Origin: Escherichia phage NiC89
Reading direction: 5' to 3' (one strand)
Length of the DNA stretch: 64,000 nucleotides
Sequence record: LC620505.1
How positions within the stretch are numbered: the stretch's first letter is position 1; the number at the start of each line of letters is the position of its first letter. Below the pieces are notes generated by a model that was not told the DNA's origin, ran no database searches, and saw nothing but the letters and a program-made list of their open reading frames with translations. Shown here one piece after another: positions 6,218-57,172 of the stretch. A program made the translations under genes and the position numbers.

Positions 6218-6251
6218 CGTTTTGTGAAAAAAAAAAAATTAAAATAAAAAA

Positions 6252-13843: not shown

Positions 13844-13907
13844 AATTTCCTCATTAATTCATATTACGCTTAATAACTTCAGCAACTTCTAGTAGTTCAT
13901 CTTTAGT

Positions 13908-14057
13908 TGCAGTGTCGGATTGAATTTTATCTCTAATATCCTTAAAGCGGTTTTAAACTCTTCGGCTTCTCCCATATCGAAAAAGCGTTGGATGATTCTA
14001 TATTCTCGATGAACTGCTTTATCAAAAAGTTCTAAATTTACTTTATATGATTTCATT
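13908..14057 (-). CDS. Small protein, 49 aa (rIIA.1-like by position; not in ORF track)
   Basis: Hand-translated MKSYKVNLELFDKAVHREYRIIQRFFDMGEAEEFKTALRILEIKFNPTLQLKMNY; between promoter at 14082 and rIIA. Confidence 0.35.
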
Positions 14058-23456: not shown

Positions 23457-24059
23457 TTATAGATTAAATCCTTCAAAATCAAGAGTATAGATAGTGTATG
23501 TTGAATACTTTTTATACTCATATCTATCTGCAATTCTAAATACACTTCCAGCTGGTATCATTACTTCTTGTTCATCTGAAACTAATTCCATATTACGATA
23601 ACGATGACTATCCGGAAACTTAAAGTTTGGATTGTATTCTTTACAGCGTAGAGCTTTTATGGCATACTCCTGGAAATTGAATACCATAGGAGCTTTGAAT
23701 TCAAAAATAACCTGTGTGTTATACTCTAAACCGGAAGCAAAATGTAGAGCTATATTTTTATCATATGAAGCTGATACTACTTTATCAAATGTAATAATAT
23801 CAATTCCTTGATTTAACACCTGCTTAGTCTCAACTGGAACACCTCTCCAAAGAGGTTTATCGTTTGGAACCAAACGAGATTTGATTATTTCATTTAACCA
23901 AGTATGGTCATCTGGCTTATTAGTAATACAATGAATTAAAAGTTCAATTTCAGATAAATTAAACCCTTCAGAAAGTAATTCTTCACGAATAGAAGCACGC
24001 ACCGATGCATCCATTGATTTTATTTTAAAATCTTTTAGTTGCATTACTGAGTATTTCAT
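23457..24059 (-). CDS. modA: ADP-ribosyltransferase ModA
   Basis: 200 aa, same length as T4 ModA; R (LWRG), S-x-S (SAS) and E-x-E (EQEV) ART motifs. Confidence 0.7.
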   Translation of the reverse strand: MKYSVMQLKDFKIKSMDASVRASIREELLSEGFNLSEIELLIHCITNKPDDHTWLNEIIKSRLVPNDKPLWRGVPVETKQVLNQGIDIITFDKVVSASYDKNIALHFASGLEYNTQVIFEFKAPMVFNFQEYAIKALRCKEYNPNFKFPDSHRYRNMELVSDEQEVMIPAGSVFRIADRYEYKKYSTYTIYTLDFEGFNL

Positions 24060-24550
24060 TCAACTACCTCAATATCATAAACTTTAAATGTTCCAAATGA
24101 ATCGTGTAATTTTTCTTTTGAAATAGAAGTTATTTTGTACTTTCCAATTGGAATCATCCATTCTTGTTCATGCACAATCATCATTAAGTTATCAGTACGC
24201 TCTGAATCTAATCCATCAGTATCTTCATATGTATACTTAAACTCAGTATTAGGAGAAGAAAGTATAATATCGCTGATATGGTCAGAGTAATTAAAAGCTT
24301 TATCAGTTTTTAAACGAAGTATTGTTTCAGTGAAATATTCAGCATAAGAAAAAGAACACGCTGTATGCAAACTAGTAGTAAATGAATCTACCCTGTTCGT
24401 TGAAAACACTTCTCCAACTTGTAAATCTTTAATGAGTTCTTTTGTTGATTTTGATATACCACGATATAATTGATAAGGCGATTTAGTTAAATGCTTTTTA
24501 ATGATTTTATTCAACTGTCTGTGAAGAGCTTCATTCTTTTTAGCTTCCAT
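24056..24550 (-). CDS. modB: ADP-ribosyltransferase ModB, catalytic part; full gene needs a -1 shift from upstream frame starting at 24681
   Basis: 164-aa ORF with LYRG, TTS, HEQEW ART motifs; a 56-codon ORF from ATG 24681 is one frame off and joins at an A8 run, giving ~208 aa. Confidence 0.6.
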   Translation of the reverse strand: MEAKKNEALHRQLNKIIKKHLTKSPYQLYRGISKSTKELIKDLQVGEVFSTNRVDSFTTSLHTACSFSYAEYFTETILRLKTDKAFNYSDHISDIILSSPNTEFKYTYEDTDGLDSERTDNLMMIVHEQEWMIPIGKYKITSISKEKLHDSFGTFKVYDIEVVE

Positions 24551-24597
24551 ACATTGCCAAAGAACAGACTGCTCAAAGTCAGTAAATTTTTCACAAA

Positions 24598-24606
24598 CTT
24601 TTTTTT
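24598..24606 (-). other. A AAA AAG slippery heptamer within A8 run at the modB frame junction
   Basis: mRNA reads TAT AAA AAA AAG TTT in the upstream frame; a -1 shift continues into the ART domain frame. Confidence 0.5.
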
Positions 24607-24707
24607 ATACATATCATATTGAAAATCAACGCTTTCAGCTTTTATAGATAACTGTTCAACATCTGCAAGATTAATAATCATGATAGCCTCCGTATACTTC
24701 AGAAGCT

Positions 24708-24737
24708 ATCATATCATCGTTAGAAAGGAAAGTAAAC
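24708..24737 (-). promoter_or_regulatory. T4-type early promoter upstream of modB
   Basis: GTTTAC (24732-24737), 18-bp spacer, TATGAT. Confidence 0.45.
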
Positions 24738-24932: not shown

Positions 24933-25409
24933 CTAATTCCTAGCGATAAAAACCAAATTGACGATTAGCTTCAATAATCTTTCTTTCTTCTTCGGACATT
25001 CTCCAACGTAGTCCAACATCAAAAGAGCCCAGACCATCTTAACAAATGCATTTATATCTTTAATATCTTCAATAATGAATGTTTTACTTTTAGAAGATTG
25101 ACTCGCTAATTTAACTTTATCGTCTTCAAACATGTCAAAAAGACCATATTCATGAGCTCTTTTATAGCCTTTAATAGTTAAAGCTTCGGAAGAAGAAAAC
25201 GGTGAATCAGTATTCTGCAAAATATCTTCAGTATGCTTTATAATTAGAATAACATTTTCTGGATATTTTCTTTCTTTTATATCTTTAATTAAAAAATCCG
25301 GATTTTCTGCTAAAGGAATAATTAATGAGCATTTTTTATCAAGTGTATTTACTGATTTACCTTCTTTAGACATAAATTCTATTGAATAATGTTTTGCTAC
25401 TTCAATCAT
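24933..25409 (-). CDS. Hypothetical protein, 158 aa (mrh-like by size and position)
   Basis: ORF; T4 has mrh in this interval. Confidence 0.45.
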
Positions 25410-49023: not shown

Positions 49024-49564
49024 ATAAAAAATCCAAACTAGGAGAATCGTCTACAACACTTTTCTTTTCAGCCCCCGGTGTTCTATAGGTTGATTCTTCG
49101 TAATGCGTCATTTTATCATAGATGTCTTGAATAAAAGTTTCATCTACTAACGCAACCATATCGTCGTCACGGCTGTCATAGACATTGTGAACGAAATAAC
49201 TATATTTCTTTGCAACTTCCTTACGTTCTTTTTTAATACGCTGGACGAATGCATTAAAACAAGCTTGAGTTATATATGCATGTGGGTTTTTATATTTCGT
49301 TTCATCAAAATTGTGAAGCCCCTTAATAGAAGCTTCTATACCATCTGCAATCATTTCTTGTTTCCAAGACTGGGTGTATCCTGAAAAGTTGAAACGTTTA
49401 GATAAGCCTTCTGCAATAAGCATAATGGCTAATCCGATAGTATCATTCTGACGAACTACTTTATTTGGGTCTTTATTATTTGCTAATTCTGTTTTCCAAT
49501 CAATAATAGCTTGTAAAAGCTCTTTATTGTTTACGTAATTATATTTAGGCTTAGTTTCTGACAT
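49007..49564 (-). CDS. 55: Late sigma factor gp55
   Basis: Track ORF 187 aa; Met-3 start gives 185 aa as in T4. Confidence 0.8.
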
Positions 49565-49642: not shown

Positions 49643-49912
49643 TTATCTAAGTAAACAGTATGCTTGGAACACTTTCTCCATCATCTTTTTAAATTCATGA
49701 ATATCTATATAATGACTAGTTAGATCAGCATGATATAAAAAGTCTAAAAACTTTTCATGTGTACTAGCATATTCGCTTTCATTTAATTCAGAAACATGGC
49801 TTTCCCAATATCCAACACCAGTCTTATTTGGGAAAAATGAAATTTTCATGTATTGATCAACATAGAAAATGCCATAATTTTCAATAGTAATAGAAATATT
49901 AATAAATTTCAT
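49643..49912 (-). CDS. Hypothetical protein, 89 aa
   Basis: ORF. Confidence 0.45.
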   Translation of the reverse strand: MKFINISITIENYGIFYVDQYMKISFFPNKTGVGYWESHVSELNESEYASTHEKFLDFLYHADLTSHYIDIHEFKKMMEKVFQAYCLLR

Positions 49913-56971: not shown

Positions 56972-57172
56972 TCAAGACTTTGGCCCCGTTTGTTCTTTAT
57001 GTTTGTATATAATATCACTTACTTCTGATAGCATATTTTTGTATGAACGAGTTACAGCAGATTTAAGCACGCTGTATCTATCAGGAAATTTACCATGTTC
57101 ATTATAATAAGCTATTGCTAATTCACGGACTGCCTTTTCAGCAGCCTCCATATATTCTTTACGCTTGGTCAT
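56972..57172 (-). CDS. Hypothetical protein, 66 aa
   Basis: ORF. Confidence 0.45.

Follow-up and report, generated by a model that had tools for sequence, protein, structure and literature searches.

A private expansion of an A-run splits modB of the T4-like phage NiC89 and creates a dnaX-like heptamer, probably as an unselected frameshift

Escherichia phage NiC89 is a Tequatrovirus (T4-like), and we analysed a stretch of 64,000 nucleotides of its sequence record LC620505.1, referred to here as the window. The gene order modA.3, modA.2, modB, modA and srd is common to T4 and NiC89, and modB lies on the minus strand of the window. Where T4 has a continuous modB, the frame of NiC89 is broken after codon 27 by two extra As, so that instead of a single uninterrupted ORF of ~207 codons the locus contains an ORF of 56 aa and an ORF of 164 aa. 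Both are annotated as "hypothetical proteins" in the deposited record. The features of the locus, together with the other frameshifted genes discussed below, are listed in Table 1.

Table 1. Positions in the window of the modB features and of other genes with private frameshifts in NiC89
Feature	Positions	Strand	Remarks
rIIA.1, private 1-nt deletion (A5 to A4 in mRNA, ~13951)	13889..14056	-	55 aa vs 67
modA, intact, modB paralogue	23457..24059	-	200 aa; 4-nt overlap with modB stop (ATGA)
ModB catalytic part	24056..24550	-	164 aa; T4 residues 44-207; deposited as BCT70122.1
modB upstream (zero) frame	24511..24681	-	56 codons; deposited as BCT70123.1
A_AAA_AAG heptamer, slippery phase of upstream frame	24598..24604	-	sequence reading
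A8 run (+2 insertion splitting modB)	24599..24606	-	relatives: A6 or A5G
TAA stop of catalytic frame	24605..24607	-	read directly from sequence
Hairpin in 5' leader, with modB GGAGG and start codon	24679..24713	-	14 pairs, 5 G-C
Early-promoter-like site 5' of modB	24708..24736	-	TTTACT, 17-nt spacer, TG, TATGAT; consensus scan
modA.3, private deletion of one A at ~25025, outside homopolymer	24933..25409	-	158 aa vs 156
nrdC.1, private 1-nt insertion (G3 to G4 in mRNA, ~56984)	56972..57172	-	66 aa vs 80

The upstream frame starts at ATG 24681-24679, which is preceded by a strong ribosome-binding site (GGAGG, 24691-24687). It contains 27 native ModB codons (MIINLADVEQLSIKAESVDFQYDMYKK), followed by 29 out-of-frame codons (an extra Lys and then FVKNLL...) and a TGA stop at 24513-24511, in agreement with the first-pass annotation, which had described a frame opening at ATG 24681 and ending after 56 codons. 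Peptides specific to this ORF after the A8 run are FVK/NLLTLSSLFFGNVWK. The mRNA codons at the run read ATG TAT AAA AAA AAG, and the sequence confirms the earlier view that modB is split here into two frames offset by one. The site 5' of modB that resembles an early promoter may function as such, and a predicted early promoter has been annotated at the equivalent position in phage fPS-2. The predicted hairpin, in which the 5' leader base-pairs with the ribosome-binding site and the start codon, may likewise have a regulatory role.

The catalytic frame is closed on its upstream side by TAA 24607-24605, and a productive -1 shift is therefore confined to positions 24604-24514. The A_AAA_AAG heptamer at 24604-24598 is the sole plausible place for accidental -1 slippage in modB. 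A -1 shift at AAG results in a protein of 208 aa (..DMYKKKVCEKF..) with one added lysine; the prediction that a heptamer matching that of dnaX stands in phase and that a -1 shift would yield a ModB of ~208 aa was thus correct. The peptide FTDFEQSVLWQCMEAK is encoded by no frame but the catalytic one, at a position 5' of AUG 24550, and would for that reason be diagnostic of a change of frame and not of re-initiation. Removal of two As (A6) gives a protein of 207 aa that is homologous to T4 ModB along its full length (203/207 identical). It had been proposed that either A7 or A9 would produce a continuous ORF, but A7 reads ATG TAT AAA AAA AGT TTG TGA and stops; only A6 or A9 restore the frame.

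The 164-aa ORF retains R73-G74, S111 and E171-Q172-E173 (T4 numbering). These residues are invariant in the ModB/ModA alignment and are shared with T4 ModB, an NAD-dependent ADP-ribosyltransferase and RNAylating enzyme. The ORF therefore has the R-S-EXE catalytic motif, which the first-pass annotation had given as R/STS/EQE. ModB attaches NAD-capped RNAs to ribosomal proteins (PMC10468400). The ORF is indeed truncated at its N-terminus, as had been stated, with the exact number of missing residues being 43 and not ~44. The downstream part of NiC89 ModB is 100% identical to residues 26-207 of KAW1E185 ModB. Homologues of NiC89 ModB carry the precomputed Pfam assignment PF26816 (Mod_ADP_RT), a model absent from the set used for our own Pfam scan, which gave no match; a PDB sequence search with ModB gave no match either. 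The codons of the N-terminal part show a synonymous excess (14:5) like that of the rest of modB (50:22), and the N-terminus can be aligned with ModA. Together, these results indicate that the N-terminus is a selected part of ModB. A structure of full-length ModB predicted from an alignment of 5 sequences had a mean pLDDT of 44 and was too poor to judge how the N-terminal 43 residues pack on the catalytic core. We also considered the 164-aa ORF as a normal, independent product and rejected this, since inspection of the sequence upstream of ATG 24550 revealed no recognisable Shine-Dalgarno sequence and there is no natural homologue starting at this position.

The number of As at the site was then compared with that in related phages. 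There are 501 related phage records, all matching with a 2-nt gap as judged from the 100 matches listed (the top 40, and 60 spaced evenly along the ranking), each of which spans 89 nt of the 91-nt query. Each of the 36 modB loci that were fetched has six bases at the site (AAAAAA or AAAAAG), and 34 of them encode an intact ModB of 207 aa. The exception is the L057/L058 lineage, which contains a different modB frameshift. Among ~15 billion proteins, the 56-aa product was found in NiC89 only, and those members of the ModB cluster (712 in total) that were read are all 207 aa long. The flanks of the A8 run are the same as in relatives, which require no frameshift. When IMG/VR was scanned for the pattern, no loci were found with GTTTGTG after the run and three with GTY; most relatives have GTCTGTG. 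A literature search on NiC89 revealed nothing relevant. By these sequence comparisons, the A8 run is private to NiC89.

The modB site consists of an X_XXY_YYZ heptamer that is in the correct phase and lies within the overlap of the two frames. In the window, AAAAAAG occurs 13 times on the coding strand and in slippery phase twice, the modB site being one of the two, and A8 is the sole homopolymer of at least 8 bases in coding regions. However, the insertion of two As into an ancestral AAA AAA lysine pair automatically generates both the in-phase heptamer and the arithmetic by which a -1 shift restores the frame. Since the +2 insertion accounts for both the length of the homopolymer and the slippery phase, neither adds separate evidence of a signal; the dnaX-like heptamer looks like a side effect of the insertion and not like an evolved recoding signal. 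No GGAG, AGGA or GAGG that might act as an upstream Shine-Dalgarno-like stimulator is present in the 20 nt 5' of the heptamer (TTTTCAATATGATATGTAT). The downstream sequence was folded over 58 nt (-7.4 kcal/mol, z = +0.63 against shuffled sequences) and over 107 nt (-19.6 kcal/mol, z = -0.93), and neither fold is significant; a long-range helix in the 107-nt fold begins directly after the heptamer, without a spacer. Conservation of the shift site and of the two-frame arrangement was absent among the homologues (the 501 records, judged from the 100 matches listed, and the 36 loci).

These features set modB apart from established frameshifting systems. The A_AAA_AAG of the E. coli dnaX gene is identical, stands in the same phase and is read by the same tRNA-Lys of the host. 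However, dnaX has a Shine-Dalgarno-like element 5' of the heptamer and a stem-loop 3' of it, neither of which is found in NiC89 modB, and the shifted dnaX product is the shorter gamma protein, whereas the shift in modB would be required for its sole functional product. The modB site, in contrast to that of dnaX, is not conserved in any homologue examined. In IS911 and other IS3-family elements, the upstream orfA and the overlapping -1 orfB are fused at A_AAA_AAG, as the two parts of modB would be; these elements conserve the motif together with a ribosome-binding-site-like element and a stem-loop or pseudoknot (PMC4066793), while the arrangement in NiC89 is private and lacks stimulators.

The frameshift in modB is not the only one in this phage. 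NiC89 has five private small indels in 50 kb, four of which are gene-breaking, compared with 0-3 in four comparison genomes, where they are mostly intergenic. The three other genes, rIIA.1, modA.3 and nrdC.1, are small and non-essential, and no slippery site is present at any of their frameshifts; the deletion in modA.3 alters the final ~30 residues. A variant at 49676 was considered as a fifth frameshift and rejected because it corresponds to the common 89-aa allele, to which KAW1E185 is the exception.

We consider it probable that the A8 run of modB is a genuine, unselected and lineage-private frameshift that results in a null or weakly active allele, with accidental rescue at a low level at most. 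Of the three readings offered by the first-pass annotation (a read error, a recent inactivating mutation or regulated expression), the inactivating mutation is now the best supported. In an otherwise normal T4-type modB, the A-run of the lysine codons would have grown from six to eight As. A-runs are well known as places where T4 DNA replication slips, and Streisinger slippage at such runs (the rII and lysozyme hot spots) is the textbook account of how frameshift alleles arise. NiC89 modB resembles these classical alleles in that bases were gained in the A-run of a dispensable gene, and differs from them in being +2, as opposed to the commoner +1 or -1; it could have arisen by two successive +1 steps. 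That a +2 step is less common than +1 or -1 in replication slippage counts against a real mutation. Ribosomes starting at GGAGG/ATG 24681 read the 27 native codons, leave the frame and stop at UGA 24511, giving the 56-aa peptide. E. coli has a single tRNA-Lys, whose pairing with AAG is weak, and a small fraction of the ribosomes may slip -1 on A_AAA_AAG to produce the 208-aa ModB with its extra lysine. As stimulatory elements are lacking, we expect this fraction to lie between ~0.1% and a few percent. Traces of the full-length and the 164-aa products may also come from slippage of RNA polymerase on A8 and from ribosomes re-initiating at AUG 24550.

Loss of modB is tolerated: a T4 mutant with a catalytically dead ModB is viable, with a burst that is 4- to 12-fold lower (PMC10468400), and L057/L058 constitutes a second frameshifted lineage. 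The modB frameshift has three private companions in the window, and all four affect small early genes that are dispensable. The reduced burst of T4 that accompanies the loss of ModB also implies that A8 should soon yield to A9 or A6 revertants. Persistence of A8 would require that ModB is dispensable on the host of NiC89, or that the leak is sufficient.

Four private frameshifts in one isolate are unusual for a natural phage and are also expected from error-prone data. The most serious alternative is that the phage is truly A6 with an intact 207-aa modB, and that the reads of the sequencing platform systematically miscalled this homopolymer as well as the other private indels, an error inherited by every assembly; we judge this less likely than a real mutation. 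Three of the four gene-breaking indels lie in homopolymers (A5 to A4, A6 to A8 and G3 to G4), whereas the fourth, that of modA.3, does not. The private indels are more numerous than in the four comparison genomes, and four of the five are in coding sequence, as expected for unselected errors in a genome that is ~93% coding. Nevertheless, none of the four gene-breaking indels affects an essential gene, although such genes make up ~30% of the region, for which the chance under random error is ~0.2 (an estimate derived from the known essentiality of T4 genes and the annotation). Two other observations fit an artefact: the ModB sequence downstream of the run is undecayed, as its identity with KAW1E185 indicates, and comparable errors occur in related records, with RB18 having a private +1 T in the essential gene 42.

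Against an artefact stands the Logan assembly of DRR277906, which is k-mer-based, has contigs of 4-10 kb and matches the window at 100% identity over 5.7 kb. Its contigs reproduce the private frameshifts of rIIA.1 and nrdC.1 exactly, and this independent assembly therefore argues against an assembly artefact; it implies accurate short reads, which speaks against an error of polishing or assembly. Logan is also among the listed sources for the exact 56-aa and 164-aa products, and it is on this listing that the read support for A8 itself rests. Finally, a consensus overcall of two bases in a 6-mer is atypical of short-read platforms. The reading of A8 as a homopolymer error is thus weakened, and it keeps some likelihood.

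We regard it as improbable that A8 is real and has been kept as beneficial, with an inefficient -1 slip or a reversible switch limiting the toxic, ribosome-modifying ModB to a trickle. If true, NiC89 would offer a naturally occurring case of a "savior indel plus compensatory frameshift", by which a T4-like phage adjusts how much of an RNAylating enzyme it makes. In the G-run mutants of herpes simplex thymidine kinase and in the poly(A) rescue of Buchnera and Blochmannia, an indel in a homopolymer inactivates the gene and slippage on the same run leaks small amounts of functional product (PMC5009743). Provided that A8 is real, such "savior" or problem indels with compensatory frameshifting would be the closest functional analogy to modB. 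The leak was measured in the "savior" cases and was selected for in that of thymidine kinase, whereas for modB it is predicted from the sequence.

The first-pass annotation had also raised regulated expression. Programmed -1 ribosomal frameshifting as in dnaX or IS911, with A8 maintained by selection so that the toxic ModB is made by a fixed proportion of ribosomes only, appears very unlikely, and modB is a weak candidate for it. In its favour, A_AAA_AAG is present in the correct phase and, when stimulators accompany it, few heptamers are as efficient in E. coli (PMC4066793); the catalytic frame remains intact, the shift yields ModB with a single extra lysine, and the upstream ORF is equipped with a strong ribosome-binding site as well as an early-promoter-like site. 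Over-expressed ModB kills E. coli (PMC3014915), so that a lower dose could be useful, and frameshifting amounted to 25-60% at an A-rich site that had no designed stimulators, in one over-expression vector (PMC1851650). However, heptamers without stimulators reach 2- to 10-fold above a background of 0.055% in E. coli (PMC4066793), and at most 0.5% would be expected for the modB site in a controlled reporter. The modB site has neither a Shine-Dalgarno-like element on its 5' side nor significant structure on its 3' side, and it is missing from all relatives examined, so there is no sign of maintenance. The heptamer and the frame arithmetic arise automatically from the +2 insertion, and three neighbouring genes have plain frameshifts for which no such rescue is possible. 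Regulated expression is therefore unsupported.

Least likely of all is a reversible homopolymer switch, with the run as a contingency locus and the population as a mixture of A6 to A9, or the addition of an A by RNA polymerase on A8, by which some of the mRNA would regain the frame. A-runs are hot spots of replication slippage in T4, but every relative examined has six bases at this position, so that the lineage gives no hint of phase variation, and a consensus sequence would hide any heterogeneity in the population. Slippage of E. coli RNA polymerase is undetectable on poly(A) runs shorter than 8, which makes A8 the shortest run with detectable slippage (PMC6260861), and slippage on poly(A) tracts rescues frameshifted genes in endosymbionts; however, high-efficiency slippage of bacterial RNA polymerase has been reported for 9 As or Ts (PMC5009743), so A8 falls short of the ~9 or more that are needed and is marginal, and the E. 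coli enzyme favours poly(T).

The preferred explanation, a genuine but unselected frameshift, has consequences for annotation and for the biology of the phage. BCT70122 and BCT70123 each correspond to one half of modB and are better annotated as a frameshifted modB than taken as evidence of recoding. More generally, whenever an in-phase AAA AAA lysine pair that precedes a G expands by two As, a mimic of the dnaX signal results. A broken modB in a natural isolate would demonstrate that on some hosts the phage can do without the enzyme, and would provide a ready-made weak or null allele.

By homology, catalytic motif and gene order, the split gene of NiC89 is assigned from its sequence to modB, which encodes the host-modifying ADP-ribosyltransferase ModB. 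It is not a single intact ORF. The first-pass annotation described a split at a run of eight A's (A8) with the slippery heptamer A_AAA_AAG in phase, and a -1 shift yielding 208 aa, which the reading frames bear out. The upstream frame, ORF1, reads ATG ATT ... GAT ATG TAT AAA AAA AAG TTT GTG ... on the minus strand, and if one base is read twice at AAG, the product has 208 aa. Removal of two A's gives 207 aa, of which 203 are identical to T4 ModB. The N-terminal residues absent from the catalytic part number 43, rather than about 44 as first estimated, and only A6 or A9 closes the gap; A7, also thought to give a continuous ORF, reads ATG TAT AAA AAA AGT TTG TGA. The catalytic residues (R73-G74, S111 and E171-Q-E173) all lie within the 164-aa part. 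By exact look-up, both pieces are recorded as "hypothetical proteins" of NiC89 (BCT70123.1, 56 aa; BCT70122.1, 164 aa), with a contig of 166,727 bp.

Features of the modB locus, private gene-breaking indels of NiC89, and frameshifted modB loci of another lineage
Feature	Position	Strand	Description	Source
Early-promoter-like site	24736-24708	minus	TTTACT-17-TATGAT	sequence scan
Shine-Dalgarno of modB	24691-24687	minus	GGAGG, strong	sequence
ORF1	ATG 24681; TGA 24513-24511	minus	56 codons	sequence
TAA closing the -1 frame upstream	24607-24605	minus	-1 frame then open down to 24056	sequence
A-run	24606-24599	minus	8 A's	sequence
Catalytic part	24550-24056	minus	164 aa; ATG 24550 is the earliest start codon in the -1 frame	
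rIIA.1	13889-14056; change ~13951		A5 to A4 in mRNA; 55 aa vs 67	
modB			A6 to A8 in mRNA; 56 aa + 164 aa vs 207	
modA.3	24933-25409; change ~25025		single A lost, not in a run; 158 aa vs 156, new C-terminus	
nrdC.1	56972-57172; change ~56984		G3 to G4 in mRNA; 66 aa vs 80	
modB, locus L057	3344-3968		frameshifted; 143-aa + 42-aa pieces	Logan SRR36241913
modB, locus L058	3324-3948		frameshifted; 143-aa + 42-aa pieces	Logan SRR36241937

In a 14-pair hairpin at 24679-24713 (minus strand), the Shine-Dalgarno and start codon of modB base-pair with the -10 region and the 5' leader. Read-through transcripts from upstream would sequester the ribosome-binding site in this hairpin, and a transcript from the proximal early promoter (~24701) would lack its left arm and leave the site free. 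This would be translation control in the style of T4, set by which transcript carries the gene.

NiC89 is a Tequatrovirus. Within the phage collection, which does not contain NiC89 itself, it matches vB_EcoM_KAW1E185 best (97.4% over 10 kb). A 91-nt query across the run matched 369 records by megablast and 501 by blastn; the top identity of 97.8% corresponds to exactly one 2-nt gap, and the matched span was 89 nt in all rows listed, namely the best 40 and 60 spaced evenly down the ranking of the 501. When IMG/VR, metagenome contigs and GTDB genomes were scanned by pattern, every true modB locus recovered had a six-base insert at the site. The proposed count of A's in related phages gave a six-base run in all 36 modB loci fetched, 20 of them added by protein look-ups (AAAAAG in 21, T4 included, and AAAAAA in 14), and in 34 of the 36 the 207-aa ModB frame is intact. 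Among ~15 billion proteins the 56-aa product is a singleton, and in the ModB cluster of 712 members those read all have 207 aa except the NiC89 fragment. On these sequences, the A8 run is shared with no relative examined.

Comparison of the window with KAW1E185, AV122, fPS-2 and RB18 revealed five small indels private to NiC89 in ~50 kb, four of which break genes; the four comparison genomes have 0-3 each, mostly intergenic. Besides modB, the genes broken (rIIA.1, modA.3 and nrdC.1) are small non-essential early genes, and every altered product of the four is unique to NiC89 among the ~15 billion proteins. None of the three other indel sites is slippery; the modB event therefore seems to belong to a wider class of unselected indels and not to be a designed signal. 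An apparent frameshift at 49643-49912 was rejected: NiC89 has the common 89-aa allele, found on >180 contigs, and KAW1E185 the rare 90-aa variant. The longest homopolymer of the window is an intergenic A12 run (6227-6238) adjoining the motA homologue, where AV122 has A8; the run may vary naturally in length or affect promoter spacing, or the difference may be a read error.

The A8 allele is probably a real mutation. In Logan, an independent assembly, contigs of the NiC89 read set DRR277906 match the window at 100% identity across 2,539 and 3,168 nt, and the private frameshifts of nrdC.1 and rIIA.1 are present in them. Such perfect agreement of a k-mer assembly over kilobases implies accurate short reads. 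Errors of assembly or polishing are thereby excluded, and a consensus miscall of +2 is unlikely. For the modB A8 itself, Logan support consists of its listing among the sources of the exact 56-aa and 164-aa products; it is listed likewise for the 158-aa product. Moreover, one of the four gene-breaking indels (modA.3) is outside a homopolymer, and none hits an essential gene. A platform artefact is accordingly a doubtful explanation, although four private frameshifts in a single isolate are unusual and the A8 allele should revert quickly, given that modB loss lowers the T4 burst 4- to 12-fold (PMC10468400). Of the origins first suggested, an inactivating mutation is thus favoured and a homopolymer sequencing error weakened. 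Also against an artefact is a different modB frameshift (+G near codon 137, ATCAGC[G]GATATT) in a related phage lineage, Logan SRR36241913/SRR36241937, whose quality is uncertain because mrh.1 and goF are also frameshifted; this is either a second natural modB loss or a low-quality assembly. That lineage and NiC89 have a rare 67-aa Srh protein in common. In RB18 (MH553563.1), a private +1 T (T4 to T5) at ~24208 lies inside essential gene 42 (dCMP hydroxymethylase), which is therefore annotated as truncated (23527-24063); the RB18 record is probably wrong at this base, and single-genome homopolymer frameshifts do arise as artefacts in this phage group.

Programmed or regulated frameshifting, as the first-pass annotation had also suggested, is highly improbable and draws support from none of the evidence: a heptamer is present, but the 20 nt upstream of it contain no Shine-Dalgarno-like element, folding of the RNA downstream is no stronger than in shuffled controls (z = +0.63 over 58 nt, -0.93 over 107 nt), the flanks are the same as in relatives needing no shift, and the site is not conserved. 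In dnaX, by contrast, efficiency comes from two stimulatory elements, and NiC89 modB has neither. No other coding homopolymer in the window reaches 8 bases, and the modB run does so, in slippery phase, because two A's were inserted in an AAA AAA G starting at a codon boundary; a -1 shift restores the frame because the insertion is +2 modulo 3. Of the 13 AAAAAAG on the coding (minus) strand of the window, among them those at 49234, 44658, 39028 and 9349, two are in slippery phase, modB and 9349, the latter in a 94-codon ORF (9453-9172). Apart from two, the AAAAAAG within long ORFs are read as AAA AAA G.., the non-slippery phase, a pattern consistent with intact genes avoiding the slippery phase.

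Most ribosomes would make the 56-aa peptide. Because the single tRNA-Lys of E. coli forms only a weak pair with AAG, a degree of -1 slippage would be expected on A_AAA_AAG, perhaps ~0.1% to a few percent at modB. In a controlled reporter, heptamers without stimulators gave 2- to 10-fold above a 0.055% background (PMC4066793), and frameshifting of 25-60% was seen at the A-rich site of one over-expression vector (PMC1851650); at A8, slippage by E. coli RNA polymerase barely occurs (PMC6260861; PMC5009743). Going by the literature on bacterial re-initiation, AUG 24550, which precedes the ORF1 stop by 37 nt and has no Shine-Dalgarno ahead of it, could yield a little 164-aa protein. The segment missing from that product has 14 synonymous and 5 non-synonymous variants (50 and 22 in the rest of the gene), which indicates the same purifying selection, and it aligns with the paralogue ModA; the 164-aa product is therefore probably inactive. 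The ModB structure prediction (pLDDT 44) is too poor for judging the effect of truncation.

Overall, we lean towards an ordinary lineage-private frameshift allele, with the slippery heptamer a by-product of the insertion. In origin it most resembles the frameshift mutations classically known from A-runs of T4. In function, its closest counterparts are a savior/problem indel with low-level compensatory frameshifting and the rescue by poly(A) slippage in endosymbionts (PMC5009743). In practice, the BCT70122.1/BCT70123.1 region should be re-annotated as a frameshifted modB, and NiC89 may carry a natural weak or null modB allele.
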